The translations under genes were made by a program, and so were the position numbers. This document shows positions 19,371 through 39,432 of a DNA stretch of 64,000 nt, one piece after another. How positions within the stretch are numbered: position 1 is the stretch's first letter; each line of letters opens with the position of its first letter. Under the pieces are notes generated by a model. That model searched no databases. It saw nothing but the letters and a program-made list of their open reading frames with translations, and was not told the origin of the DNA. The DNA lies in assembly GCF_988243305.1 (NCBI RefSeq), contig NZ_OZ547136.1; one strand, written 5' to 3'.

Positions 19371-20435
19371 ATGGTAACGTCCTGTACTGGACATGTTTTA
19401 GATAATCAGCGCGCCACCACTCGCGGAGATTTCTCCTCCGGTAGTCATCTCGTCACTTTGTATTTTCAACCTCATCCTTTCTTTTCATGTGTTACCGACG
19501 CCGTAAACGGTGCGCGTAGCCGTTTTTCGGCATTTTATCCAAAAGCAAACTATGGCTTACAAGGAAGCCAACCCTCTGATGTTCGTGCGCATAATCGCGC
19601 TGCCAACGGCGCGTGTGATGAATACAAACAACTCAAGGTGCTCTCCATGGGAAGACAAAAAGCAGTGATCAAAGCTCGTCGCGAGGCAAAACGTGTGCTG
19701 AGACGGGATTCGCGCAGCCATAAGCAGCGTGAAGAAGAATCGGTCACCTCGCTTGTGCAGATGAGCGGCGTAGAAGCCATTGGTATGGCCCGCGACAGTC
19801 GCGATACCTCGCCCATCCTCGCGCGAAATGAAGCGCAATTGCACTATCTGAAGGCTATTGAGAGTAAGCAGCTGATATTCGCCACGGGCGAAGCCGGGTG
19901 CGGAAAAACCTGGATCAGCGCAGCAAAAGCGGCAGAGGCCCTGATACATAAGGATGTCGACAGGATTATCGTCACCCGTCCAGTTCTGCAAGCCGATGAA
20001 GATCTTGGCTTCTTACCTGGAGATATCGCAGAAAAGTTTGCTCCCTATTTTCGTCCGGTCTACGACGTGCTGGTCCGGCGCTTAGGGGCTTCCTTTATGC
20101 AGTACTGCCTGCGACCGGAAATAGGGAAGGTGGAAATTGCGCCGTTCGCCTATATGCGTGGACGTACCTTTGAAAATGCAGTCGTCATTCTTGACGAGGC
20201 GCAGAATGTGACTGCCGCGCAAATGAAAATGTTTTTAACCCGCCTCGGGGAGAACGTGACGGTTATCGTCAACGGTGATATCACGCAATGCGATTTGCCT
20301 CGCGGCGTGCGCTCCGGATTAAGTGACGCGCTGGAACGTTTCGAAGAAGATGAAATGGTCGGGATCGTCCGATTCGGTAAAGAGGATTGCGTACGTTCGG
20401 CACTTTGCCAACGTACGCTACATGCATACAGTTAA
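19371..20435 (+). CDS. phoH: PhoH, phosphate-starvation-inducible ATPase
   Basis: 354-aa ORF with Walker A GEAGCGKT. Confidence 0.85.
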   Translation: MVTSCTGHVLDNQRATTRGDFSSGSHLVTLYFQPHPFFSCVTDAVNGARSRFSAFYPKANYGLQGSQPSDVRAHNRAANGACDEYKQLKVLSMGRQKAVIKARREAKRVLRRDSRSHKQREEESVTSLVQMSGVEAIGMARDSRDTSPILARNEAQLHYLKAIESKQLIFATGEAGCGKTWISAAKAAEALIHKDVDRIIVTRPVLQADEDLGFLPGDIAEKFAPYFRPVYDVLVRRLGASFMQYCLRPEIGKVEIAPFAYMRGRTFENAVVILDEAQNVTAAQMKMFLTRLGENVTVIVNGDITQCDLPRGVRSGLSDALERFEEDEMVGIVRFGKEDCVRSALCQRTLHAYS

Positions 20436-20997: not shown

Positions 20998-21684
20998 ATG
21001 AGCTTTATGGTTTTTGTAACTTGTTTGACAATTGCATTTGTCGCCGGTTTTGCTGTTGCCAGAAAATTGACACTCCGAAAAGTTGCCTCATCGGTAATCA
21101 TCACTAGATCGCAACCAGTCCCTTCCTCTGCAACTTCCCCTGCTGCTAAGGCGTCGACAAGGAGCTATACACCGCAGAAAACCTATCGTGACTCTCGTTG
21201 GCAAGAACGAGATGAGTTGTTCCAGGGAATGGTTGCCGAAGGTATTTTATTGGAAGGAAAAGAGTGGTTAATTACGCGTTGTGAAAAAATTTATTTTGAT
21301 AATCTGGAGAAATGGTTTGGACATTCTTGTCATATCCATTGCCAGGTCTCTCTGGGGCGCTTGATCAACTTTCCAGAACAACCCGAGTTTAGCGAAGAAG
21401 AAAGAAAGCGTTTCTTTGCAATTTATAATGGAATGGCAATGGATTATGTTCTGGTTTCAAAGAAGAACAATAAAATAGTCTGTGTTATTGAGCTGGATGA
21501 GCCGAGTCATGAAAGGGCAGATCGCATTATTCGTGACCGTTGGTTGAATACGATTATGACTATTGCACGGGTGCCTTTTGTACGAGCTTCTGTCACTAAA
21601 TTGGATGAAATCCCTCCGGTCTGGGATACCCGTGACAAAATTCGCCCATTAGCCGCGGCGACAAAGGGTGAACCGTTGCATTAA
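20998..21684 (+). CDS. Membrane-anchored DUF2726-like protein
   Basis: 228-aa ORF with N-terminal TM helix and a C-terminal region that I read as DUF2726-like (NFPEQPEF ... VIELDEPSHE); AT-rich promoter region upstream. Confidence 0.55.
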   Translation: MSFMVFVTCLTIAFVAGFAVARKLTLRKVASSVIITRSQPVPSSATSPAAKASTRSYTPQKTYRDSRWQERDELFQGMVAEGILLEGKEWLITRCEKIYFDNLEKWFGHSCHIHCQVSLGRLINFPEQPEFSEEERKRFFAIYNGMAMDYVLVSKKNNKIVCVIELDEPSHERADRIIRDRWLNTIMTIARVPFVRASVTKLDEIPPVWDTRDKIRPLAAATKGEPLH

Positions 21685-21691
21685 CTAAGTA

Positions 21692-21969
21692 CCCCGGTCA
21701 GGGCTTCTCATCTCCCCCGGTGTGTGCAATATACGAAAAAAAAGCCCGTACCTTCGTACGAGCTCTTCTTTAAAGATGGCGGTGAGGGGGGATTGACTCG
21801 CTTCGCTCGCCCTGCGGGCAGCCCGCTCACTGCGTTCACGGTCTGTCCAACTGGCTGTCGCCAGTTGTCGAACCCCGGTCGGGGCTTCTCATCCCCCTGT
21901 GTGTGCAATATACGAAAAAAAAGCCCGTACCTTCGTACGAGCTCTTCTTTAAAGATGGCGGTGAGGGGG
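21692..21969. repeat. Two ~99-bp near-identical direct repeats separated by ~81 bp
   Basis: Copies at ~21692–21790 and ~21872–21969; on the minus strand each carries a stem-loop followed by T8. Confidence 0.6.
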
Positions 21970-22129
21970 ACCGCCTGAAATAAATCTGACTTAATCCAGG
22001 GGTGTTATATAATTTCATTATAAACAATGTATTACACTTTTTGTTGTCCGATATTATCTAATGTATTCTTAGTGAAGCGAGAGACTAATGGCATACTGGA
22101 TGGCATACCAGAGTGACGGGAATTAGCGT

Positions 22130-23332
22130 ATGGCAGTATTGACGGATACGAAAGCAAGACATATCAAACCTGATGACAAACCATTGCCCCATGGGGGAAT
22201 TACCGGACTGACCCTTCATCCTTCTTCAGTAAAGGGGCGGGGGAAATGGGTTTTTCGTTATGTAAGTCCGGTGACACAAAAAAGACGTAATGCTGGATTG
22301 GGAACTTACCCAGAGGTCAGTATTGCTGAAGCTGCACGTACTGCCCGGATAATGCGAGAGCAACTTGCTGCAGGTGATGATCCTCTGGAGATTAAAAAGG
22401 CTGAATCTGAGAAAGTCGCTATCCCAACATTTGCCGATGCAGCCAGGCGTGTACATGCAGAACTGTCTCCTGGATGGGAAAATCCAAAGCATGTAAGGCA
22501 GTGGTTATCGACGCTTGAGAATTACGCGTTTCCTCAACTGGGAGCAAAAACGCTGGATTCGATTACGGCTGCGGACGTGGCAGAAACACTGCGTCCAGTC
22601 TGGTTAACCTTATCAGAAACGGCAAGCCGGGTTAAACAGCGCATTCATGTTGTTATGCAGTGGGGATGGGCGCACGGTTTTTGTGTAGCAAATCCTGTTG
22701 ATGTGGTTGACCATTTGCTTCCTCAGCAGACAAGAGGACGTGATGAACACCAACCCGCAATGCCCTGGAGGCAGTTACCGCTTTTTGTGGCGACCAGTGT
22801 GTATACCGATGAACCTTATAATGTTACCCGCGCACTGTTATTAATGGTGATACTTACAGCAACTCGCTCGGGCGAAGCCAGGGGAATGCGCTGGGCTGAA
22901 ATTGATTTTCATAAGCGGGTATGGACTATACCTGCAGAAAGAATGAAAGCTAGGCTACAGCATCGTGTTCCTTTATCCCGGCAGGCTATTTACATTCTGG
23001 AAAATATACGTGGCCTGCATGATGAACTGGTGTTCCCTTCACCCAGAAAGCAGCAGATCCTTTCCGATATGGTGTTGACAAGTTTTCTGCGTAAAAAGAA
23101 AGCCGTCAGTGACATTCCGGGGCGAGTTGCCACGGCACATGGTTTTCGCTCAACATTCAGGGACTGGTGTAGCGAACAGGGGTATTCGCGGGATCTGGCG
23201 GAAAGGGCGCTCGCTCATACGCTGAAAAATAAGGTTGAGGCGGCATATCATCGTACTGATCTACTGGAGCAGCGTGTACCGATGATGCAGGCATGGGCGG
23301 ATTATGTGATGTCTCAAATTGTGAATAAATAA
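22130..23332 (+). CDS. P4-type tyrosine integrase
   Basis: 400-aa ORF with arm-binding-type N-terminus and C-terminal catalytic region (HGFRSTF ... LAH ... Y) as in P4/CP4-57-type integrases. Confidence 0.85.
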   Translation: MAVLTDTKARHIKPDDKPLPHGGITGLTLHPSSVKGRGKWVFRYVSPVTQKRRNAGLGTYPEVSIAEAARTARIMREQLAAGDDPLEIKKAESEKVAIPTFADAARRVHAELSPGWENPKHVRQWLSTLENYAFPQLGAKTLDSITAADVAETLRPVWLTLSETASRVKQRIHVVMQWGWAHGFCVANPVDVVDHLLPQQTRGRDEHQPAMPWRQLPLFVATSVYTDEPYNVTRALLLMVILTATRSGEARGMRWAEIDFHKRVWTIPAERMKARLQHRVPLSRQAIYILENIRGLHDELVFPSPRKQQILSDMVLTSFLRKKKAVSDIPGRVATAHGFRSTFRDWCSEQGYSRDLAERALAHTLKNKVEAAYHRTDLLEQRVPMMQAWADYVMSQIVNK

Positions 23333-23518
23333 TAGTGAAAATGTATATTGTACGATCATGATTTGATATGTGATCGTAGCAGTAGTAATTAAGAAACCGC
23401 TTTTATGTCAAATGTATTGAGCTGATAATTATCAGATCGTCAGGAAAGCGTATTTTGATTAACAGGGGATTACTTAACAATCCCCTTTTTATAAAAAATA
23501 ATTTGCCTGTTTAACTCT

Positions 23519-25336
23519 TCACTCCTGCTGAGACTGAATTATTCCTAGTGCGTCATAAATCAGTCTTCTGCGTAGTTTATTGTTTTTATCTGCACCATAT
23601 AACATAAATATATTTTCAACTTTTTCTTCAGGTGTTCTGAGATAATGGATAAGAAAGGTTATCATTCCAACACAATGGAATAAAGTGAATCCATCAAACA
23701 GGCTTATCAGGTTTCCTTTTTTTTCCCGTGTTGTAAGTATTTTTTCGCGGGTAAGAATATTTGCCAGTTCATGGGGGGCTGATATGTTTCTGCTGTCTAT
23801 AATGTCATTTATTTTACCAAGGGCTATATCAACTTCCTGTAATAGGTTATTTATCATAGCTGAGTGAATGTTATTGGTTTCATGTTCCTGACAGTTTATG
23901 AACTTATAAATCATTGAGTTATACAGAAATATTACTCTTCCTAATAAATATGTGTTTGTGTCATTTTGAAGACAGGACTCTGGGTATTCGTGATCCAGTG
24001 AAATAAGGTTAATGGACTCGCCCTGATAAGTCATAAAATAATTGATGTCATTTAATAATGCTCGGATATTTACATGATTTTTACTGAATTTTATTTTAAA
24101 TGCTATCTTTAGTATAGCAAACGCGGCAATGATAAATCCAAAAGGTAATTTCTCATAGTTCAGTTTATTGATGGTGCGATGAACACTTTCAGTCTTTCCT
24201 GAAGTAAGTTGTCTCAAACAGTTAACAAATTCTGTATAGCCATTTAAGACATAATGGCATGAAGAATCTTTTAAAGAGTTTTCTATGTTTTGTAATGTGA
24301 CGCCGTTGTTCAATGTATAAATGTAACCGCCAAAGACAATGTTTTCAATCTCAACGACACAATTTATTGTTTTTTGTTCAGGATAAAGATAAATATCAGA
24401 AATACTATAGTCTCGTATTGCGTCAATGGCATCCCACGATAATGCACTGTCAATTTTCAGTGTATAAAATGGTGAGTTCTCATTAGGAAAGTAATATATG
24501 TATTTGTTCAGTATATTCATTACATCTATTGGGTTGGTTAAATATAATAACTGGCATTCATATTCTGAAACTTCTCTTTCGCTTATCAGCATTTTATATA
24601 AAGTTGCCAGGGTGCTTGTTAATGAAGTTCGTCTTTCGAAAGCCAGTAATATAGTGAGATAATAACATGCAACCTGAACTTTATCTAAGTCAGAAATTAT
24701 TTTTTCCTTGTCTTCATTACTTAAATAAAGCAGATGTTTACAGGTTTCTTTGCATGTGTTGATAGTTGCGATAAGTTTTGTTTTTCCTGGTGTACTGTTT
24801 TTGCGAATATTACGAATGAATTCATATACGCCATCAAAGATATCTTTGAAATGCGCATTCGCTGGCGTGTATCCGGATAAACATAACTTAACGTAATTTC
24901 GCAGATATGTCCTTGCAGCATGATATATATCATCCTCATTATCCGGTATCTGAGTGAGAAAAGAATGAATATGATAGTAAAATGCCATCTCATTATCCGG
25001 GCGATATGTGTTCCTGATGTCGAGTGCGAGAATCATTGGTACAATGTCATTAAAATATTTTTGTTTTATTATTTGATGTGTTTTGTCTGTAAAAACAGAA
25101 TAGTGCATTAGCTTAACATAGAGATCTTCATATCTCCTAAATATAACTTTTCGTTGTTCTTTACTCAATACTTGTTCTTTATCAATAATGTTTATTAATT
25201 CATCAAACATGTCGCCCAGTGAATGTTGATGTGAGGAAAAATTTTTAATATTTCGGATGTCACGGCTATTCTGGTTTTTAGCCAGAACACCAAAACATGA
25301 AAAGACATCATACATTATAGTGATAAAATTATACAT
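23519..25336 (-). CDS. Hypothetical 605-aa orphan protein, strongly AT-rich
   Basis: Long uninterrupted ORF with no motif I recognise, directly downstream of the integrase. Confidence 0.6.
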   Translation of the reverse strand: MYNFITIMYDVFSCFGVLAKNQNSRDIRNIKNFSSHQHSLGDMFDELINIIDKEQVLSKEQRKVIFRRYEDLYVKLMHYSVFTDKTHQIIKQKYFNDIVPMILALDIRNTYRPDNEMAFYYHIHSFLTQIPDNEDDIYHAARTYLRNYVKLCLSGYTPANAHFKDIFDGVYEFIRNIRKNSTPGKTKLIATINTCKETCKHLLYLSNEDKEKIISDLDKVQVACYYLTILLAFERRTSLTSTLATLYKMLISEREVSEYECQLLYLTNPIDVMNILNKYIYYFPNENSPFYTLKIDSALSWDAIDAIRDYSISDIYLYPEQKTINCVVEIENIVFGGYIYTLNNGVTLQNIENSLKDSSCHYVLNGYTEFVNCLRQLTSGKTESVHRTINKLNYEKLPFGFIIAAFAILKIAFKIKFSKNHVNIRALLNDINYFMTYQGESINLISLDHEYPESCLQNDTNTYLLGRVIFLYNSMIYKFINCQEHETNNIHSAMINNLLQEVDIALGKINDIIDSRNISAPHELANILTREKILTTREKKGNLISLFDGFTLFHCVGMITFLIHYLRTPEEKVENIFMLYGADKNNKLRRRLIYDALGIIQSQQE

Positions 25337-25476
25337 AACATTCTCCTTTTATTGCACTATATAAAATTTTAACATTATATCATTTTGCTTTTCTGTTAAC
25401 TGGTTTTCATTTTTGAATCAATATTTTCTGAACAGGGTAATAGTACACGTATTAACAGATTATGTCAGAAGGCCCC

Positions 25477-26239
25477 GGTGATGCCTTCTGACGATAGATT
25501 AATGTTGTATTCTATTGGTATCTGGAGACCATATGGCAACAGTTACAGTATATTCTCCCCGCTGTAATTCCTATAAAGTGTACCGTTATGATCACAGCAC
25601 CTCAGATCATGAGCGTTTCCAGTGCTAATCCTGCAAACGTGTATTTCAACTGAATTACATCTACGAAACCCGAAAACCAGGCATTAAAGAGCAAATTGTT
25701 GAAATGGTTCATAACGGAGCCGGGGGTCGCGATAGCTCCAGAACGCTGAAGGTGGATATCAACACCGTCATTCTCACTTTAAAAAACGCTCACCACGTAA
25801 AGTAACCATATCTCCAGCCGCCAGTGTCGATGTGGCACTTATCTGTGAACTTGATGAACAATGGAGTTTTGTCGAAAACAAAGCTCGTCAGCAGTGGCAC
25901 TGGTACGCGTATAAGACCAAAGCTGACGGTGTGCTGGCTTACACTTTTGGTCCTCGCACTGATGAAACATGCCGTGAGTTGCCGGAATTCCTGAAGCCAT
26001 TCTCCGCAGGCATGATAACCAGAGACAACCGGAGCAGTTATACCAGAGAAATGCCACAGGATAAGCATCTTGTCGGCAAGATATTTACCCGGCGCATTGA
26101 GCGCAACAATCTGACACTTCGTACTCACATCAAACGACCTGCCCGGAAAACGATTTGCTTTTTACGCTCCCTGGAAATTCACGAAAAGCCATTGGTTCAT
26201 TTATCGAAAACACATGTACTACTGACAGGAGTCATTACC
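25477..26239 (+). mobile_element. IS1-family element, divergent and degenerate
   Basis: IS1-like terminal inverted repeats (ggtgatgcc ... ggagtcattacc); InsA-like and InsB-like reading frames (ICELDEQW ... RIERNNL) broken by stop codons. Confidence 0.6.
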
Positions 26240-26435: not shown

Positions 26436-26744
26436 ATGGGGGATAAAATGCCAGATCAATCCGGACACTGCAGGACTCCTTCACGCATCTTACGGATGCC
26501 TGAACTGAGCCAATTGTTAGGTATATCTCGTTCGACAATTTACGAAAAAATGAATCCGTTATCGAAATACTACGATGCAACCTTCCCCAGGCCGGTACGT
26601 CTTGGTAGTGGTTCTGTGGGCTGGCGTTCATCAGCTATTGACGAATGGCTTACTTTACATACTGTACCTGCCAGATCAGCAGTCAAAGGTGTTAATGACG
26701 AAGTGAGACATACGCTTTCTTCAGATATGACCATGAGCAGATAA
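26436..26744 (+). CDS. AlpA-family phage/island transcriptional regulator
   Basis: MPELSQLLGISRSTIYEKMNP HTH typical of AlpA-like proteins; true start may be internal. Confidence 0.7.
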   Translation: MGDKMPDQSGHCRTPSRILRMPELSQLLGISRSTIYEKMNPLSKYYDATFPRPVRLGSGSVGWRSSAIDEWLTLHTVPARSAVKGVNDEVRHTLSSDMTMSR

Positions 26745-26852: not shown

Positions 26853-26906
26853 GCTATTGTCGCTATTGTCGCTATTGTCGCTATTGTCGCTATTGTCGCT
26901 ATTGTA
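26853..26906. repeat. Tandem 9-bp repeat array (gctattgtc, six units, last degenerate)
   Basis: Directly visible; a related degenerate copy lies at ~27351–27394. Confidence 0.85.
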
Positions 26907-26937
26907 GCGGTAATTGCTGCTATAACCGAAACGTATT

Positions 26938-27204
26938 ATGAAAAAGGAAGCATTTATGCCTTACATCAAACCGGATATGCCGTATTCAGTATATGCATGA
27001 CCATCAATGATAGGGAAGGCAATAATTAAAGCTCAATACAATAAACAAGTACCTCTGACTCTGGTTGCAATGTCAGTATTAACAGCGATGTCAATTGCCT
27101 GTCAGAATCAGGTTGACGTATGCAGTCCCGGAAATTTACGTGGGGCCGTTAATATTTACACTATGGTTCTGGAGAAAGGGAAAAGACCGGGGGAAAGGTA
27201 TTAG
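26938..27204 (+). pseudogene. Degenerate partial duplicate of the YfjI-like gene N-terminus
   Basis: MKKEAFMPYIKP ... then ORF 27007..27204 (AIIKAQYNKQVPLTLVAMSVLTAMSIACQNQVDVCSPGNL) parallels residues 1–70 of the downstream gene, with a frame break. Confidence 0.55.
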
Positions 27205-27404
27205 TGAAATAATTTCCGGAGGTATTAAGAATGAGAAATATGAATGATATTTCGTGGTGAATAATACAGTCTTCACTGAATTAACCTTATCGGTTTATTA
27301 AACATCAGATCTACAAATGCTCTGTATTTCTCAGAGCATCAGGTCTGAATAGCAGCTATTTTCGCTATTGTAGCGGGATTTGCTGCTATTTTACTAACCC
27401 ATTA

Positions 27405-28856
27405 ATGAAAAGAGAGGCTTTTATGTGCTTACTTGCACCAGAAAATCCTTATCCGATATATGCACTACCACCGCTGGTGAGAAATGCAATAATTGAAACT
27501 CAAAAAAATACACAGGCACCTTTGGCTATGGTGGCAACATCCGCATTAACAGCGATCTCAATTGCCTGTCAGAATCAGATTGACGTGTGCAGACCTGGAA
27601 ATTTACATGGGCCTGTTAATCTTTACTCTCTGATTCTGGCTGATTCCGGTGAAAGGAAAACGACCGTGGATAAAGTGTTTATGAAAGCATTTTATCTCAG
27701 GGATGAAGCCCTGGCGGATGAATACGCGAAACTGGTTGAGAATTACAGTACAGAAAAGGAAATATGGGAGCAAAAACAAAAAGCGCTGGAATCAAAATTT
27801 CATAAAGAGATTCGTGCCGGTAAAGATTACAAGGCAACAGAATCAGAGCTTGAAACGCATCTGAATAAACCTCCTGTTCCGCCGCAGATACGTCGAACAA
27901 TTTTTAATGAGACAACGATAGAGGGAATGTTAAAATATTACTCCGATAGCAATCGCTCTTTTGCTCTTGTATCCAGTGAAGGGGGGGTAATTTTTGACAG
28001 CCGGGCCATGAGTAAACTGGGAATTATTAACACTTTGTGGGATGGAGGTTCTCTTTTCATCGACAGGAAATCATCTCCCGGAATTAATTTGAAGGAGCCA
28101 AGACTGACGATATCGGTGATGATTCAGCCTGATGTTTACCACAAAGGTTTTTGTACGCGAAAAAAAGAAATTGTGAAAACGTCAGGACATCATGCAAGGT
28201 TTTTGATGTGTCAACCAACATCAACGCAGGGGACAAGGATAATAACCGGAGATAATTATTCATCACAGTATCAGGATTTGTTTGAAGAGAGGATCAATGA
28301 GCTTATTGATGAAAGTCTGGCGATGAGTGGTGAACGACGTTGCCTTCACTTTTCTCCTCAGGCTGCCAGAATCTGGACGGATTATTACAATGATGTGGAA
28401 TCGAAGCTGGGGGGATTGGGGCCTTTAAGACATTGCCGGGAATATGCTGCTAAAAATGCAGAGTATATGGCAAGACTGGCAGGACTTATTTACCATTCGA
28501 GCGGTGAAGAGGGGGAGATTTCCCCTTACACTGCAGAAATGGCGAGAGAATTAGCAATATGGTACGGTAATGAGTATGTGCGGTTGTCTAATCCGTTAAC
28601 TTTTGACAACTCTGCCCTGACCGTACCTGTGCGACTCATTCCAGAGGAGCTTGAACTTTTCAACTGGATAAAAAGCTATTGTATTGAGAAGGGGATCCTC
28701 TGTATGAAAAAAAATGACATTTTACAGCGTGGTCCGAACCGTTTCCGGAAAAAGGATAAAATCAACTGGTTACTGGATTTACTGTATGAACAAAACAGAG
28801 TTGTACCGGTTATTGAGGGAAAAACGTTGTGTGTCGCACCTAACTTTGACCTCTGA
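27405..28856 (+). CDS. YfjI-like island protein (DUF3987-like)
   Basis: 483-aa ORF matching the YfjI family of CP4-57-type elements by recalled similarity and position after alpA. Confidence 0.7.
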   Translation: MKREAFMCLLAPENPYPIYALPPLVRNAIIETQKNTQAPLAMVATSALTAISIACQNQIDVCRPGNLHGPVNLYSLILADSGERKTTVDKVFMKAFYLRDEALADEYAKLVENYSTEKEIWEQKQKALESKFHKEIRAGKDYKATESELETHLNKPPVPPQIRRTIFNETTIEGMLKYYSDSNRSFALVSSEGGVIFDSRAMSKLGIINTLWDGGSLFIDRKSSPGINLKEPRLTISVMIQPDVYHKGFCTRKKEIVKTSGHHARFLMCQPTSTQGTRIITGDNYSSQYQDLFEERINELIDESLAMSGERRCLHFSPQAARIWTDYYNDVESKLGGLGPLRHCREYAAKNAEYMARLAGLIYHSSGEEGEISPYTAEMARELAIWYGNEYVRLSNPLTFDNSALTVPVRLIPEELELFNWIKSYCIEKGILCMKKNDILQRGPNRFRKKDKINWLLDLLYEQNRVVPVIEGKTLCVAPNFDL

Positions 28857-29676: not shown

Positions 29677-30240
29677 ATGTATAATGCTAATCCCAATTAC
29701 GAAATGGACTTCATGATTCTGAAAGACGTGAATGAACACATGGAAGGTCTGTTTCAACGTTTTTCTAAACTGTTACCTTTCAGAATTGATTTTGCCTACA
29801 GGAAAGACACGCCCAGTTTTGGTCATTCCTGTAGGCACAGTATGTGTATTGAAATGCACCGCTTACTTAGTGAAACCCAAACGATGCTGGCGGGATATTA
29901 CTGGGTAATGGAATATACGTCAAACAAGGGACTTCATATTCATTTTATCGGCTACTTGGATGGGCAACGTCACAAGAAATTTTATCGGATATCCAGGCAA
30001 CTGGGAGATATCTGGAGTCGGATCACGGAAGGGGAGGGTTATTTTCACCTGTGCAGTACTAAAGACAAATACTCGGTGCGTATCGATCACGTGATTCACT
30101 ATAGTGATAAGTCTGCGGTAGACGGTTTACGTTACGCCCTTAGCTACCTGGCTAAACAGGATCAGAAAGAACACGGTATTATTCTGGGCCGTAGCAGGCT
30201 TCCCGAAAAAAGCAACCGGGGCCGACCACGACATAACTGA
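29677..30240 (+). CDS. YfjJ/YagK-like protein (inovirus Gp2-type putative replication initiator)
   Basis: 187-aa ORF; family assignment from recalled similarity and position after the YfjI-like gene. Confidence 0.6.
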   Translation: MYNANPNYEMDFMILKDVNEHMEGLFQRFSKLLPFRIDFAYRKDTPSFGHSCRHSMCIEMHRLLSETQTMLAGYYWVMEYTSNKGLHIHFIGYLDGQRHKKFYRISRQLGDIWSRITEGEGYFHLCSTKDKYSVRIDHVIHYSDKSAVDGLRYALSYLAKQDQKEHGIILGRSRLPEKSNRGRPRHN

Positions 30241-30902: not shown

Positions 30903-33900
30903 TTGGAAGTAGAAATGTGGGATGGTGGCTTACAAGAACAGGAAGTATTGGCTATCGAGAAAATAAAAGCTGCTTTTTCAGTCAACGTATCTAAGCCTGA
31001 CAAGCCTTTCCGTAGCGGTTCAATTAGTGAGCAGCTAAAAAGCTATGGTTTTATCGGCAATGAAATGTTCCCTTGGAAAGGTTATGCAGGTTTTCGATTT
31101 GTTGAGGCAAAAAAAGAGGGGGAATTCGATTTAGTTATTGTAACACACTGCAACGTGATCATTGTTGAACTGAAAGACTGGAACCATCAGCCTGTAACCG
31201 CACGCGGAGATACTTGGTTTAAAGGCGATAAGAACATGGGGCGCTCGCCAGTAAGCGTGACTCGTAGCAAAAAATTCATGCTGGACAAAAAACTCAAGCG
31301 TCTGGTAGACCGTTTTACGAACAAAGGCTATATCCCGATTGTTCATTTTTTTGTTGTGATGACCGGCAATGCAGATTTCAGCGCGCTGCCGGAGGAACAA
31401 CGGCGCCATACGATCTCGTTAAAAGATTTCCTGAAGTTTGCCGATCGCGGGAGCTTCAATAACTATTTCAAACCGCACCCAGCTACCAAGGTTCTTAACA
31501 AGGATTTCCATCTTTTCGATGATTTGTTCCTAGGGCCTCAGACGGCACCAAAAGCCTTGAGAGTTAATGGCTATGAAGCTAATGATATGATTTTCGAACA
31601 TCCTAAAAAGGTGTATCGAGAATATCTGGCAAAATCTGAGATATCAACGAACAGCGAAGCGCTACTCAGAGTATGGAATTTTAGAAATATAACGGGAACG
31701 AAAGCGAATACCCCGGAAGGACGAGCTCAGATTGTTTCACGTGAGCGCGAAGTGTTACAGCACATCAATCACCAGAATCGTGACCTGTATAACCACTGTC
31801 TCAGGTCTTTGACGAGTTTTCAGAAAGACGAGGTGACGGCCGAGTATAGCGAAGTCTACGAAGTTCCGCCGGGTCATGTCCGGTTTAATGAGTTTATCGG
31901 AAAATATGGTAAGAACTTTTCTGATATGGACCGCTTGAATGTGGTGAAACTGCTCATTGCAAAGTTTAGTGATCTCCATGAGATGAAAATTGCGCACAGG
32001 GATGTCGCCGATCACAGTCTGTGGATTTCACCTTCAAAAGAAGTTGCTCTTTCGAACTTTATTTCGGCTTACCACCAGCCAGCCGGAACGGTTGGCGATT
32101 ACCGTAAGCTTTTATCCGTAGGTGCAGTCCACGTAAAAGACATGCTTGATAAGGGCGAGCTTACGCCTTTTCAGCAAGATGTTCATACTCTGGGCCTTGT
32201 CGCCTGGCACTTATTTAGCGGTATGCGCATGTCGCCAAAGAGTCTGGAGAAAGTACAGGACAACATGCTAAACAGCCAGCACTGGTATTCATCTGTATTA
32301 CGGGATGCCGTTGCCGCAAAATTCACTTCTGCAACAGAATTCTTTGATGCCCTGAAACAAGCCGAACCTGCTGGCAAGGATATTCCAACATTTGATGATA
32401 CTGAGCTTGACCCTTACCGACATGCTATCAATCACGCTCGTCAATACCCGGAAGACGATGGCTTTCAGTTTCAGGTCGAAACAGTCGACAAAGAAGTCTA
32501 TATCTCGAAAGGAAGGCTCGTGAAGGCTTGGCTGAATGTTGGGGGACAGGGATACGATCCGTCAATTAATTTCCAGGTTCTGAAGTTTTTAAAGCAGGTT
32601 GAGCGGCTTTCTTCAGTTAAAACAACGTATCTACCTCAAATTCGTGAATTCGGTATCGCATCAAAATCATCAAGCCTATATATGGTCACGGATCAGGTAC
32701 AGGGAGAAACCTGGGATAAAATAGCGGTCCCCGATGATGAAAAAATCGACCTCATTGGTAAGTTTGTCGCCGCCGTTGAGCACTTACATGGTCTGGGTGT
32801 TTCTCACGGGGACATCCACCCTGGCAATGTGATATTTGAGACACAGAGCCGTTTGCTTTTTCTCATCGATATCCCCGATTTTTCACCGTCCGGTGACGAA
32901 CCTAAAAATCACAGTTACAGCCCTGAATACATTGATAATTGTACTTCTTTTGAACGTGACAACTATGCAGTGATGAAGATGTCCTGCGAGTTGCTAGGCA
33001 TGTCATGGGGGCTGGAATCAGACATTTATCCGACAATCGCGAATGCTATCCGAGCAGAGCTGGAAGATCCGGTTTTTGGGTTTAAGGATTTAGGCCGCTT
33101 TAAAAAAGCGATAGATAGTAATGACCTGGTGCCAGAACAAGACCTGATAGAGATTACTGCAGGAAATGCCGATGAAATAATCTCTATTCTGCCTGATAAC
33201 GGGCATCTGTATGTCAAAGTTAAGTCAAATCCTAAAGCGCCAGCTGAAGTAAATGTGACTTTCTCTGGGATTGGTGGCAGTTTTACTGCGGTGTTCAACA
33301 AAGATCAGAAGACGCTGGTTCATGGCTTCAGGCCACGGGCTCGCGTCACAATTCGTAAGCAAGATATTGATGAAAGCCAGTTCGAAATTGATACTGGCAT
33401 CAAGATTATTCCCGGCAGTCCGCAGGATCTGTCGGCGTTGACAGTATTGCTTAATGAAGAAGAATCTTTTGCGCGGGCAATCGAGTTGATTGCCGCAACT
33501 GAAGATGTTCAGGTACAAGAGCCACTTACGCTTCAGCTAAAAGATACCTTTGCAAGGCTTGATAAGCAGACGCTTGAACCTTCTTTAAGAGAAGTGCTGG
33601 AAATCCCAACAGTGAAACTGTGGCGCGCCATTCTGGATACTGAAACAGAATCTTATCCAAACATTGAAATCAGCGGTGAAGTGGTCCCGGTTGCAGATGC
33701 TCATGGAGAGCTTCTTCTCCCTTACTCTGCTGATGTTGATCCACTCGGTGCTTTCAGAAGTAGTGATGAAGTCGAAGCCTTACAGGTCGATCAGGAAGGT
33801 GTTGAGCGATTTATTGGTGAAGTGTCACTTAAGAAGTCAGAGCTCAAAGAGATTCGTCTTGTCAAAGTTAGTTCAGCAGCCTTCAAGCTGAAGGATTCTG

Positions 33901-35873
33901 ATATTGTCTTCTTCCGTACAAGGCCGACTCGTGCATCTTATCAGAAACGTAAACGCGCACTGGAACGTCTCCTAGATCGAGAAAGTGTGCTGCCTGACTT
34001 AATTGACTTGTTCGATCCATCCTGCAAACAGGCGGCTCAAAATTATGGTATCACTCTCAGCGATACCGATTTTGCCAGATACGACCGTGAAGATCAGCAC
34101 GGAAACAAGATCAGTCTGAATGAACAGCAAAGAAAGGCGTTTAACAAACTGGTCAATAATGGCCCTCTCTCCCTGCTTCAGGGGCCACCGGGGACCGGTA
34201 AAACCGAGTTCATCGCGGCCTTTGTTCACTACCTGATCGAGAAACAGAATACCAAACGCATTTTACTGGTCAGCCAGTCACACGAGGCTGTGAATACAGC
34301 GGCCGAGCGTATCAGAAAGCATTGTTCCCGGCTTGGTACAGAGTTGGACGTTGTCAGGTTCAGCAACCGAGAGGGAGCCGTTTCCCCTGGCTTAAAAGAT
34401 GTGTACTCACACGCAATCACAACAGAGAAGCGCGAACTCTTCAATGCTGAAATTAAGTACCGTGTTGAAGCATTGAGTGAAGCTATTGGTCTGGAGCCGG
34501 GATTTATTTCGGGTGTTGTTCTTGCAGAGCTCAATTTGTTCAGACAAATCGATCACCTTGAGAAATTGCTCTATCAGGTTAACAATTTAACGGATTCAAA
34601 TGAGAGCAATGAACTGAAAGATATTGCAGTCGAACTCGATTTTTCCATCCGCTCTAAGCTGAGTCAGGAGTATGGGATTAACTTGGACAATGGCGTGAAG
34701 GTCTCAGCAGCAAAAGACATTCTGATTTCCAAGCTATGTACAGAGTATGGTGTCAGACCTGATGAGGCAAGACGAGTAAAAGCATTAGCTAAAATATCCC
34801 GTGATATGCAGGATGCTATGTCGGGAGAGCGAGTGAACCTGGACGAGTTTTATTCGCGCTCCAGGCAGTTAGTGGCTGGCACATGCGTTGGTATTGGACA
34901 AGGGCACATTGGCATTCAGGAGAATATCTATGACTGGGTGATTATTGATGAGGCGGCGCGCTCGATTTCAAGTGAGCTGGCCATTGCAATGCAGTCAGCC
35001 CGGCGTGTCCTGTTGGTGGGTGACCACATGCAGCTTCCTCCATTGTACTCAGATGCCCACAAGGCGGCATTAGCGAGGAAGCTGGGTATCAATAACTCCC
35101 GCACTGAAATTGACGAGGTATTACGAAGTGACTTTGCCCGAGCCTTCAACTCTGCTTATGGTGCGCAGACGAGTGCAGCTTTGATGACCCAGTATCGTAT
35201 GGCTCCACCGATTGGTAATCTCGTATCGAAGACGTTTTATGACGGGAAGCTTCTGAATGGAGTACGGGCAATTCCGGATGTCTATCAGCAAGCTCCGGAA
35301 GCGTTACGTAGCGTTGTAACCTGGCTTGATACTGCTAATCAGGGCCACCGAGCACATCATCTTGAAGATCGCGGAACAAGCATTTACAACCGATGTGAAG
35401 CTGACGAGATTATTTCTGTTCTTAAACAGGTGTCAGAGAATGAAGAATTTGTCGCTAAGCTTTCAAAACTTGTTAGCAAAGATGAAGCCGCTATCGGCGT
35501 GATATGTATGTATGCCGAACAAAAGCGGTTACTCCGTCAGAAATTCAATCAGGAAATCTGGAGCGAGGGATTTAAGGACATTGTTAAAATTGACACTGTT
35601 GACAGTTATCAGGGAAAGGAAAATCGGATCATTATCCTGTCACTGACGCGTTCGGATAAGCAGCATAGCCCAGGTTTCTTACGCGTTCCAAACCGTATAA
35701 ATGTCGCGATGTCACGCGCAATGGATCGACTGTTGATTGTGGGTAATGCCGATATCTGGAAGGGAAACAATAAAGAATTGCCATTAGGCTACGTTGTAAG
35801 TTATATGGCTGAGCGAGGTCAGGAAGCTGGATACAGGTTCCTCTCTGCTCAGCAGGGAGGCAAAAAGAAATGA
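30903..35873 (+). CDS. Giant multidomain protein: NERD-like nuclease region, two protein-kinase-like regions, UPF1-like SF1 helicase (candidate defence effector)
   Basis: 1656-aa ORF; aggaga SD 6 nt before the TTG start (alternative ATG at 30915); FDLVIVTHCNVIIVELKDW; IAHRDVADHSLWI and VSHGDIHPGNVIF...LIDIPDF; helicase motifs GPPGTGKT, VIIDEAARS, LLVGDHMQLPP, VDSYQGKE, RINVAMSRA. Confidence 0.8.
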   Translation: MEVEMWDGGLQEQEVLAIEKIKAAFSVNVSKPDKPFRSGSISEQLKSYGFIGNEMFPWKGYAGFRFVEAKKEGEFDLVIVTHCNVIIVELKDWNHQPVTARGDTWFKGDKNMGRSPVSVTRSKKFMLDKKLKRLVDRFTNKGYIPIVHFFVVMTGNADFSALPEEQRRHTISLKDFLKFADRGSFNNYFKPHPATKVLNKDFHLFDDLFLGPQTAPKALRVNGYEANDMIFEHPKKVYREYLAKSEISTNSEALLRVWNFRNITGTKANTPEGRAQIVSREREVLQHINHQNRDLYNHCLRSLTSFQKDEVTAEYSEVYEVPPGHVRFNEFIGKYGKNFSDMDRLNVVKLLIAKFSDLHEMKIAHRDVADHSLWISPSKEVALSNFISAYHQPAGTVGDYRKLLSVGAVHVKDMLDKGELTPFQQDVHTLGLVAWHLFSGMRMSPKSLEKVQDNMLNSQHWYSSVLRDAVAAKFTSATEFFDALKQAEPAGKDIPTFDDTELDPYRHAINHARQYPEDDGFQFQVETVDKEVYISKGRLVKAWLNVGGQGYDPSINFQVLKFLKQVERLSSVKTTYLPQIREFGIASKSSSLYMVTDQVQGETWDKIAVPDDEKIDLIGKFVAAVEHLHGLGVSHGDIHPGNVIFETQSRLLFLIDIPDFSPSGDEPKNHSYSPEYIDNCTSFERDNYAVMKMSCELLGMSWGLESDIYPTIANAIRAELEDPVFGFKDLGRFKKAIDSNDLVPEQDLIEITAGNADEIISILPDNGHLYVKVKSNPKAPAEVNVTFSGIGGSFTAVFNKDQKTLVHGFRPRARVTIRKQDIDESQFEIDTGIKIIPGSPQDLSALTVLLNEEESFARAIELIAATEDVQVQEPLTLQLKDTFARLDKQTLEPSLREVLEIPTVKLWRAILDTETESYPNIEISGEVVPVADAHGELLLPYSADVDPLGAFRSSDEVEALQVDQEGVERFIGEVSLKKSELKEIRLVKVSSAAFKLKDSDIVFFRTRPTRASYQKRKRALERLLDRESVLPDLIDLFDPSCKQAAQNYGITLSDTDFARYDREDQHGNKISLNEQQRKAFNKLVNNGPLSLLQGPPGTGKTEFIAAFVHYLIEKQNTKRILLVSQSHEAVNTAAERIRKHCSRLGTELDVVRFSNREGAVSPGLKDVYSHAITTEKRELFNAEIKYRVEALSEAIGLEPGFISGVVLAELNLFRQIDHLEKLLYQVNNLTDSNESNELKDIAVELDFSIRSKLSQEYGINLDNGVKVSAAKDILISKLCTEYGVRPDEARRVKALAKISRDMQDAMSGERVNLDEFYSRSRQLVAGTCVGIGQGHIGIQENIYDWVIIDEAARSISSELAIAMQSARRVLLVGDHMQLPPLYSDAHKAALARKLGINNSRTEIDEVLRSDFARAFNSAYGAQTSAALMTQYRMAPPIGNLVSKTFYDGKLLNGVRAIPDVYQQAPEALRSVVTWLDTANQGHRAHHLEDRGTSIYNRCEADEIISVLKQVSENEEFVAKLSKLVSKDEAAIGVICMYAEQKRLLRQKFNQEIWSEGFKDIVKIDTVDSYQGKENRIIILSLTRSDKQHSPGFLRVPNRINVAMSRAMDRLLIVGNADIWKGNNKELPLGYVVSYMAERGQEAGYRFLSAQQGGKKK

Positions 35874-37306
35874 TATCTGATAACAAAGTTACCTATCATG
35901 AGGTTGACTTCCTGCTGCCAGCACAGAGGTTTAACATTCAGTTTTCCTATGTTTCCCAGAAGGGGCTGCCATTTATCCGGGAGTTTGTGCTGAGACTTGT
36001 TCATGTAGCTTCGATGAGCAAAGCACAAATAGCAACCTATTTCGGCCTGACCCACCGTGAGACAGAGGAGGCGATTTCCGATCTTGTGCAGCGTGGCGAA
36101 TTGACGCTCTCCTCAGACGGCAGACTGGCCTTAACAGACAAATCAAATGGCTATTTTTCAGAGGTTGGCGAGATACCGCATCTTTCAACTATTCAGGACA
36201 GTGGCTGTACCTTATCCTTTGATTTAGCCACATTTAGTTGCTTCAGCAACCAGGCTTTTCAGGACCACTGGAGGGGAGGGGTAACATTAAAGGTTGATGA
36301 CAACAACATTTCTCAAAGTGAGAAACTGGTTGAGAAGCACTTTCAATACCAGTTTAATCAAATCCTGGATAAAGGTTACCTGTCTCACCTGCAGGTTCAG
36401 GTCGGAAAAGAACAACCTTCTATCTATACCGTTAATTCTGTTAATAAGCTGCGGCAAATACCACTCCGTTTAACAACGGAATTTAAAATGGATAGCGATG
36501 GTAAGGCTGTCGAGCGTGAAGACTATGAACAGTTAAATAGTTCGGAATGTGTTCATGAGTTAATGGCTGTTGAGATAGCCAGGTTATCACGGCATAACAA
36601 TACCATGAGTATTTTTAAGGCCATGCAATCCATTAACGATGACCTTACGCTTAAGCTGTTTGACTCTAAAACGAATCGACTTAATCCGTTGTTTATCAAA
36701 GATATGCAAGCACTGGAAGAATACTCGTCCTCAGGCAGAACGACTTTTTTAGGTCCGGTTTATTCTAAAAACAACTGGGAAAAGCTGCAGAAAGCTCTGG
36801 CACCAGCGCTCAATCAGCGTATCAGAGATAAAACTGATTATGGAGGTAGCCCGTTCATCTGGGTGGCACCATCAGATCCCTACTGGTCAAAAAGCATTCG
36901 ATTTATCTCAAGCCTGAGCAATTTTCTTAGCAAGTCGGCTACGAAGGATAAGCAGCTGTATAAACCGGTGCTGTACGTACCTGTCCGGGATGCAGCTGAT
37001 GCTCGGGTTGCCAGACAGTGGAAGTATGAACTTGGGCAATTCCATGAGTACGCTAAAGGACTAGTTGAGGGGCTGTTAGATGGTAATGTTGAGATCCTTC
37101 ATCTTGAGGATGAGTTATCTGCCGTTATCTATCATATTTCTCAACCCGAAATATTGCCTGTAACGATGCCACTGGGCTTTATCACAACGAACAAAGAAAC
37201 GGTTAAGATTATTGGTACTCTGGTTACTGAATATATCAAAGGCACCACTGGTTTTGATAAGTTTCATGACTGTGGCGCAATTTCGGCAATGATTAAGAAA
37301 GGTTGA
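35870..37306 (+). CDS. Hypothetical 478-aa partner protein with possible N-terminal winged-helix region
   Basis: Start overlaps the upstream stop (ATGA); no PLD HxK(x)4D motif seen. Confidence 0.7.
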
Positions 37307-38218: not shown

Positions 38219-38545
38219 ATGACTAAAAATACTCGTTTTTCCCCCGAAGTCCGTCAACGGGCAGTCCGTATGGTTCTGGAAAGTCAGAGCGAATATGACT
38301 CACAATGGGCGACAATTTGTTCCATTGCTCCAAAGATTGGCTGTACGCCGGAGACTCTGCGTGTCTGGGTTCGCCAGCATGAGCGGGATACCGGGGGCGG
38401 TGATGGAGGGCTCACCACCGCTGAACGTCAGCGTCTGAAAGAGCTGGAACGTGAAAATCGTGAACTGCGCCGCAGTAACGATATCCTTCGCCAGGCTTCC
38501 GCTTATTTTGCGAAGGCGGAGTTCGACCGCCTCTGGAAAAAATGA
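38219..38545 (+). CDS. IS3-family transposase OrfA (copy 1)
   Basis: 108-aa HTH/leucine-zipper OrfA ([19 protein letters not shown]...). Confidence 0.85.
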
Positions 38546-39432
38546 TGCCACTGCTGGATAAGCTGCGTGAGCAGTACGGGGTCGGACCGCTATGCAGCGA
38601 ACTGCATATTGCCCCGTCAACGTATTACCACTGTCAGCAACAGCGACATCATCCGGATAAACGCAGTGCCCGTGCGCAGCGCGATGACTGGCTGAAGAAA
38701 GAGATACAGCGCGTATACGATGAAAATCACAAGGTATACGGTGTGCGTAAAGTCTGGCGTCAGTTGTTACGGGAAGGTATCAGAGTGGCCAGATGCACTG
38801 TGGCACGTCTCATGGCGGTTATGGGACTTGCCGGTGTTCTCCGGGGTAAAAAGGTCCGTACGACCATCAGCCGGAAAGCCGTTGCCGCAGGCGACCGCGT
38901 AAACCGTCAGTTCGTGGCAGAACGACCTGACCAGCTGTGGGTGGCTGATTTTACTTACGTCAGCACATGGCGGGGCTTCGTCTATGTGGCGTTCATCATT
39001 GATGTGTTTGCCGGATACATCGTGGGGTGGCGGGTCTCATCGTCCATGGAAACGACATTCGTGCTGGATGCACTGGAGCAGGCGTTATGGGCCCGTCGAC
39101 CGTCCGGCACGGTCCATCACAGTGATAAAGGTTCTCAGTATGTATCGCTGGCCTACACACAGCGGCTTAAGGAAGCCGGATTACTGGCATCAACAGGAAG
39201 TACAGGCGACTCGTATGACAACGCGATGGCGGAGAGCATCAATGGTCTTTACAAAGCGGAGGTAATACACCGTAAGAGCTGGAAAAACCGTGCAGAAGTG
39301 GAACTGGCCACACTCACGTGGGTGGACTGGTATAACAATCGACGATTGCTGGAAAGGCTGGGCCATACTCCTCCGGCAGAAGCAGAAAAAGCTTATTATG
39401 CTTCCATCGGAAACGATGATCTGGCAGCCTGA
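38542..39432 (+). CDS. IS3-family transposase OrfB, DDE integrase core (copy 1)
   Basis: 296-aa ORF overlapping orfA, typical programmed-frameshift arrangement. Confidence 0.85.

Follow-up and report, generated by a model that had tools for sequence, protein, structure and literature searches.

ORF605 is a 605-amino-acid open reading frame (ORF) in a 64,000-nucleotide stretch of contig NZ_OZ547136.1 (RefSeq assembly GCF_988243305.1), referred to here as the window. Its product belongs to a protein family whose gene stands back to back with alpA, and which is confined to integrative islands of the CP4-57, SRL-PAI and OI-43/48 types in Enterobacterales, Aeromonas and Shewanella. Because the family is never found away from alpA, ORF605 behaves like a life-cycle gene, and we infer that its product serves the life cycle of these islands specifically and is not cargo that shuffles freely. 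Our leading reading, held tentatively, is that the protein binds other proteins and is coupled to the AlpA switch, in the role of a gatekeeper or sensor. This work newly defines the family, and its novel fold, its constant pairing with alpA, and its placement relative to a conserved iteron-like palindrome are likewise new findings. As an element type, ORF605 is an island gene in the alpA-adjacent regulatory region and not yet demonstrably a new system. The islands that it heads are of medical importance, namely OI-43/48 and SpLE1 of O157:H7, with their tellurite resistance, urease, and Iha. A family that stands back to back with alpA is also the most direct handle on what quiets or triggers the AlpA switch in CP4-57 and SRL-PAI islands.

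The genes that frame ORF605 in the window are listed below; ORF calls and the RefSeq annotation of an identical O157:H7 locus confirm int, the relic of insertion sequence IS1, alpA, yfjI, and yfjJ.

23519–25336, minus strand: ORF605, 605 amino acids, ATG start (ORF call and sequence)
22130–23332, plus strand: int, P4-family tyrosine integrase gene converging on ORF605 (ORF call, annotation)
about 25478–26237, unstranded: IS1-family relic between ORF605 and alpA (O157:H7 annotation, collinear alleles)
about 26448–26744, plus strand: alpA-type regulator or recombination directionality factor, the family's conserved divergent partner (ORF call, annotation)
27405–28856, plus strand: YfjI, a DUF3987 protein of the alpA operon (ORF call, annotation)
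29677–30240, plus strand: YfjJ, an inovirus-Gp2-like protein of the same module (ORF call, annotation)

The pairing was read in nine independent lineages, picked by protein similarity alone and reaching down to 18–20% identity: the window type, Providencia, Yersinia ruckeri, two further Escherichia coli lineages, Edwardsiella, two from Aeromonas/Shewanella, and one metagenomic. In 9/9 the family gene diverges from alpA, wherever int lies and whatever follows downstream, and alpA is followed by DUF3987 and usually then by a YagK/YfjJ (Gp2-like) gene. A gap of 87–250 bp separates the family gene from alpA, and the IS1 relic widens it further in the window type. Most of these loci run int> ... 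<yfjJ <DUF3987 <alpA gene>, with the window type, int> <gene alpA>, as the exception. Since the family gene thus mostly lies across the module from int, its conserved partner is alpA, not int. The initial annotation, made from the letters alone, had placed ORF605 in an integrase-proximal slot between int and alpA; that position is correct for the window type, but proximity to the integrase is not the feature that is conserved.

Similarity between family members also follows similarity between their AlpA proteins across the nine loci (Pearson 0.86, Spearman 0.88, Mantel p = 0.0002), a signal to which linkage and host phylogeny contribute. The corresponding values for DUF3987 against AlpA are only 0.37 and 0.20, although alpA and DUF3987 are adjacent and co-oriented. 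This difference indicates that the family gene and alpA are inherited together more faithfully than alpA and DUF3987. In every locus, Aeromonas included, the family gene has the lowest guanine-cytosine (GC) content (0.32–0.39). AT-richness is therefore a family-wide property and gives no evidence of a recent foreign insertion into the island.

ORF605 is a real, translated, and selectively maintained gene. Peptides of the protein have been detected, the ratio of nonsynonymous to synonymous substitution rates (dN/dS) is 0.18 at a dS of 0.20 against a 92%-identical allele, and homologues align over the full length; together these observations support the frame as coding. A 605-codon open frame is also far beyond chance in stop-triplet-rich DNA of 32% GC. 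The long, strongly AT-rich ORF described earlier is thus borne out, with a GC content of 0.31–0.34 against about 0.5 in the flanking core genes (efeB/phoH) and 0.42–0.49 in neighboring island genes; by codon position, the values are 0.40/0.28/0.30. Its start is preceded by a strong Shine-Dalgarno sequence and a candidate promoter, and a hairpin lies beyond its end:

25343–25348, minus strand: Shine-Dalgarno sequence AAGGAG, 7 nt upstream of the ORF605 ATG (read from sequence)
25374–25382, minus strand: candidate extended -10 element TGATATAAT, a putative promoter of ORF605's own (read from sequence)
23464–23486, unstranded: hairpin with an 8-bp stem between the converging 3' ends of int and ORF605, terminator-like, T-run on the plus strand

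The extended -10 element lies about 40 nt beyond AAGGAG, and both fall within the 140 bp of native DNA that precede the IS1 relic. A promoter scan adds weak promoter-like candidates upstream of ORF605 at 25468–25440 and 25383–25356, and counts 23 promoter-like sites inside the gene against 13.9 expected. The hairpin is also a candidate for ending ORF605 transcription, being suitably placed for it.

Sequence searches show that ORF605 is not alone. A word-indexed search over 5.8 billion clusters returned only relatives of at least 91% identity, and a profile-based word-indexed search yielded no additional distant ones. An exhaustive phmmer search over 1.84 billion representatives, by comparison, produced 34 matches, about 15 of them full-length proteins of 568–689 amino acids at 18–35% identity. 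The orphan status first assigned to the gene therefore holds only for word-indexed or close searches. The family comprises about 20 lineages at 18–36% identity, in E. coli, Citrobacter, Klebsiella, Y. ruckeri, Hafnia, Kluyvera, Dickeya, Edwardsiella, Providencia, Proteus, Morganella, Aeromonas, and Shewanella, and all members are annotated as hypothetical. They share the motifs YEQLYN, ALDI, FYxHI, LPxGYL..A..I..ALKIKL, NNxTIxRxIxxYN, and NLIxxL..TLxNC, and the conserved positions are mostly hydrophobic.

Sequence and domain-library searches of the protein found no catalytic, nucleotide-binding, or DNA-binding signature, and the conserved family positions likewise show no recognizable catalytic arrangement, in agreement with the initial annotation. 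Neither the single sequence, the profile, nor any family member has a significant match in NCBIfam, PHROGs, Pfam, or PDB sequences; PADLOC-DB v2.0.0, a library from 2023, has no family at E <= 1 for ORF605 or 10 relatives. Judged by its sequence, the protein is apparently non-enzymatic. Structure prediction gives a confident, compact globular all-alpha model (predicted template modeling score, pTM, 0.83), with relatives at template modeling (TM) scores of 0.8–0.85 in AFDB, no related fold in the PDB, and no match among the viral structure predictions of BFVD. The model thus describes a soluble 70.8-kDa all-alpha protein with a predicted fold that has no known relative. On the Kyte-Doolittle scale, a single segment at about 397–416 reaches 2.0, while a second, centered on 552–554, reaches 1.6. 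Both hydrophobic segments (about 397–416 and 546–566) are conserved and lie within helices of high predicted local distance difference test (pLDDT) score in the compact model; UniProt labels fragments of ORF605 as integral membrane protein. One Aeromonas subfamily of 862–868 amino acids, conserved across species, carries an N-terminal region resembling the helix-turn-helix (HTH) of IS481 transposases, a fusion hinting that the family may act at DNA or close to it. A LuxR-type HTH in the C-terminal "LTxRE..." stretch was considered and rejected, given that no GerE match appears at E <= 10 and the predicted helices do not fit.

The exact ORF605 sequence is common in E. coli. It occurs in 1036 of 5426 complete genomes, where it is always annotated "hypothetical protein", as well as in a CFT073 record, and it has been in databases under that label since 2001. 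A tblastn search of 50,697 phage records found no family match, and the matches in a plasmid collection are only E. coli records of 0.2–4.8 Mb, which are apparently chromosomal or chromosome-derived sequences filed as plasmids. Allele variation concentrates on two homopolymer tracts:

23715–23724, minus strand: A8GG tract, codons 538–541 of ORF605, frameshift-prone
23773–23778, minus strand: C6 run, codons about 519–521 of ORF605, one base shorter in one allele lineage (L022)

Independent -1 frameshifts have struck the A8GG tract, giving A7GG in one lineage and A8G in another. Through frameshifts in the two tracts, some alleles encode only 542–546 amino acids and lose the last 60 or so residues. 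Because distant homologues conserve these last 60 residues, the 605-amino-acid form is ancestral, and the exact 90-nt sequence around the two tracts is kept in 858 of 1037 E. coli records.

The family gene is also accompanied by a palindrome, GCTAC-N4-GCTAC-N2-GTAGC-N4-GTAGC, which lies about 30–80 bp downstream of the family gene's stop codon in all lineages except the window type. It is exact or has at most 2 mismatches, and one E. coli lineage (L009) carries a variant with different center spacing. A scan for the palindrome, limited to one genome per species, recovered 21 loci. Wherever enough flank is present in the Enterobacterales loci, the palindrome again follows a family member that diverges from alpA: six loci have alpA alongside (Enterobacter, Edwardsiella, Pseudescherichia, Providencia, Kluyvera, and Citrobacter), and an Enterobacterales bacterium (L048) shows the same arrangement with alpA cut at the locus end. 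Two further loci, from Salmonella and Xenorhabdus, are too short to show alpA. In Pseudomonas and Marinobacter the palindrome sits about 0–170 bp upstream of alpA with no family gene between; in the Marinobacter loci, as in Pseudomonas locus L047, a Zn-ribbon>DUF932(>YqaJ>Gp3-like) operon runs the opposite way. The Undibacterium copy of the palindrome lies just beyond the DUF3987 3' end. The survey thus places the family gene between the alpA promoter and the palindrome, and shows that the module can exist without it. A role for the palindrome as the binding site of the ORF605 protein was rejected, as it occurs in modules that lack the gene and a scan of the window finds it absent there. The window has instead a repeat array between alpA and yfjI:

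26853–26905: repeat array in which the 9-bp unit GCTATTGTC recurs directly in 5.9 perfect copies

The period of this array is GCTAY-N4, matching the palindrome arms of the other lineages. The array looks iteron-like and is a candidate origin for the island; a variable-number tandem repeat is also possible.

The nearest positional precedents for ORF605, a LuxR-family gene of PIME1 and the Stl genes of Staphylococcus aureus pathogenicity islands (SaPIs), suggest by analogy a regulator or sensor of island activation. Stl master repressors are encoded divergently from the island's activation and replication operon and differ greatly in sequence between islands; they are roughly 250–300 amino acids long and carry an N-terminal HTH. 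ORF605 resembles such Stl/cI-like repressors in diverging from the alpA operon in all lineages read, but it is a 605-amino-acid protein without an HTH, and only the Aeromonas subfamily has the IS481-like one. In PIME1, the LuxR-family gene is divergent from alpA, and excision and replication require both of them (bioRxiv 10.64898/2026.01.12.698999). The LuxR-family gene and ORF605 both diverge from alpA in the regulatory region of their element, but ORF605 has no LuxR/GerE HTH or other Pfam domain, and its island is of the DUF3987/Gp2-like type rather than one with repA/tra genes.

Other elements share the island core. In PICMI, AlpA is the excision switch, the variable gene iolg next to int is required for excision, and UP2, a single gene of unknown function in an int-alpA-DUF3987 satellite, has been shown to provide anti-phage defence (PMC10803314). 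PICMI and the ORF605 island have int, alpA, and the DUF3987 primase in common, along with variable unknown genes between int and alpA. Compared by position and description, however, iolg overlaps or abuts int co-directionally instead of diverging from alpA, and UP2 is encoded at the opposite end of the element. The int/alpA/DUF3987/Gp2-like core also matches PIME elements and the genomic islands that integrate at the transfer-messenger RNA (tmRNA) gene of Pseudomonas and are moved by a jumbo phage (PMC12595487), although the Pseudomonas modules examined lack the ORF605 family. Papers on these Pseudomonas islands (PMC12595487), OI-43/48, SpLE1, and SRL-PAI give ORF605 no function.

The slot itself is replaceable, as the initial annotation had proposed. 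YfjH of the E. coli K-12 cryptic prophage CP4-57 has the same place and orientation as ORF605 (int> <gene alpA> yfjI> yfjJ>) and is likewise uncharacterised, but it has 318 amino acids against 605 and no detectable homology (hhalign probability 0.09). Strain EF5-18-41 has a 543-amino-acid orphan in this position. Both occupants were considered as ORF605 homologues and rejected as unrelated. The relic beside ORF605, recognized earlier as IS1-like, is annotated in the identical O157:H7 locus as "IS1 family transposase, frameshifted; internal stop". The block from int through ORF605, the relic, and alpA to yfjI is collinear among window-type alleles at 90.6–98.6% identity, and since alleles that have diverged by 9% share the IS1 insertion in collinear position, it must be old. 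No Rfam RNA adjoins the family gene in the window or in eight homologous loci.

Under the reading we prefer, the ORF605 protein would be expressed from the integrated island by a promoter of its own, and would serve as a protein-binding module working together with the AlpA switch or upon it. It might restrain the excision and replication that AlpA drives, or it might detect a helper or a competing mobile element, or interact with one, and so gate activation. YfjH and other unrelated slot proteins would then be alternative versions tuned to different partners. Several observations weigh against such a role. The gene has stayed under purifying selection despite its separation by IS1, which means that tight coupling to the alpA promoter is not required. 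Unrelated genes take the slot in K-12 and EF5-18-41, it is empty in the Pseudomonas, Marinobacter, and Undibacterium modules, and the module works without a family gene. Pfam and structure searches detect no DNA-binding domain in the protein, which at 605 amino acids is large for a regulator, and linkage and host phylogeny alone could account for part of the Mantel signal. Family members retain 36% identity where AlpA retains 80% and DUF3987 70%; such fast divergence is typical of conflict or defence genes, and the recurrent frameshifts and fragmentation in the family are equally typical of them.

The main rival is a defence role, which the initial annotation had suggested and which we consider somewhat less likely than the AlpA-linked reading but still a serious alternative. 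ORF605 would then be a stand-alone anti-phage or anti-mobile-element protein of a new type, acting by abortive infection or exclusion from an alpA-adjacent cargo slot; its helical body would recognize a phage protein and block it by sequestration or through a membrane effect of the hydrophobic helices. If this were true, a single protein would bring both a new fold and a new mechanism. Changing occupants and empty modules are what a cargo site would show, and the neighborhood is rich in defence, with Mokosh, a Gabija-like system plus type I restriction-modification, and AbpAB in CP4-57. The gene is AT-rich, diverges faster than its neighbors, is repeatedly truncated, and remains under selection though IS1 has uncoupled it from alpA; its two conserved hydrophobic helices would suit the membrane variant, and UP2 of PICMI offers a precedent (PMC10803314). 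Direct support is nevertheless absent: the 2023 PADLOC library matches neither ORF605 nor its 10 relatives, and the compact all-alpha model contains no effector, NTPase, nuclease, or clear transmembrane domain. Recognized defence systems do occur elsewhere in the sampled islands, but never in the alpA-divergent slot. Moreover, typical defence genes occur in many genomic contexts, whereas this family keeps to one genomic position and is never found in phages or true plasmids.

A protein that exploits or interferes with a helper, in a role analogous to P4 Psu/Sid or SaPI Ppi/Cpm, is less probable still. Its target would be a structural, packaging, or replication protein of the helper phage or plasmid that mobilizes this satellite-like island. 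The core shared with phage-moved satellites and islands (PICMI and the Pseudomonas tmRNA islands) fits this view, as do a non-enzymatic, all-alpha, island-restricted protein and slot occupants that vary by island lineage as helper-specific modules would. However, these E. coli islands have no known helper, the gene has its own constitutive-looking promoter outside the alpA-led operon, and the protein shows no structural similarity to known hijacking proteins. By far the least probable explanation makes ORF605 a functionless passenger or decaying gene in which the AT-rich DNA is what matters, for example as an H-NS nucleation site silencing alpA, with the frame incidental. Its lowest-in-locus GC content, the excess of internal promoter-like sites, and the frequency of truncated alleles would agree with this. 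The dN/dS value, full-length conservation at 18–36% identity with conserved motifs, the confident fold prediction, the detected peptides, and the retention of exact sequence across the frameshift-prone tract in most E. coli records all speak against it, and the selection and conservation data have already largely refuted it.

The left junction of the island lies just upstream of int:

21956–21969, plus strand: 14-bp attachment (att) core TGGCGGTGAGGGGG (serW/serX 3' end), island left junction; second copy at 21777–21790

Both copies of TGGCGGTGAGGGGG, which is the direct repeat of OI-43/48 and SRL-PAI (PMC3064760), end tandem repeat units of about 180 bp (21700–22030) immediately upstream of int. 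The corresponding repeats of a similar locus (H34) are annotated as RtT small RNA. No transfer RNA (tRNA) gene and no third copy of TGGCGGTGAGGGGG occur within the 64-kb window. The island therefore appears to occupy a tRNA-less secondary site after phoH and a DUF2726 gene and to reach past the window. Its cargo includes a complete type I Mokosh system downstream of yfjJ at 30903–37306, in the position that abpAB holds in CP4-57. It consists of MkoA (30903–35873, 1656 amino acids; PADLOC E = 0, 2212 bits) and MkoB (35870–37306, 478 amino acids; E = 1.9e-151).

Smaller features complete the region. The 5' part of yfjI is internally duplicated at 73% identity (26889–27215 against 27348–27692), which yields a small "DUF3987 domain-containing" ORF at 27007–27204, upstream of the full gene, in all window-type alleles. 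The DUF2726 protein between phoH and the island junction has 228 amino acids (20998–21684); in L026, one of the Aeromonas/Shewanella islands, DUF2726 forms a fusion with a large superfamily 1 (SF1) helicase. Rfam further identifies a Ysr251 antisense RNA at 20237–20430 on the minus strand that overlaps phoH at its 3' end (193 bits); at 38500–38616 on the plus strand it finds the frameshifting pseudoknot ALIL, belonging to an IS3-family element.
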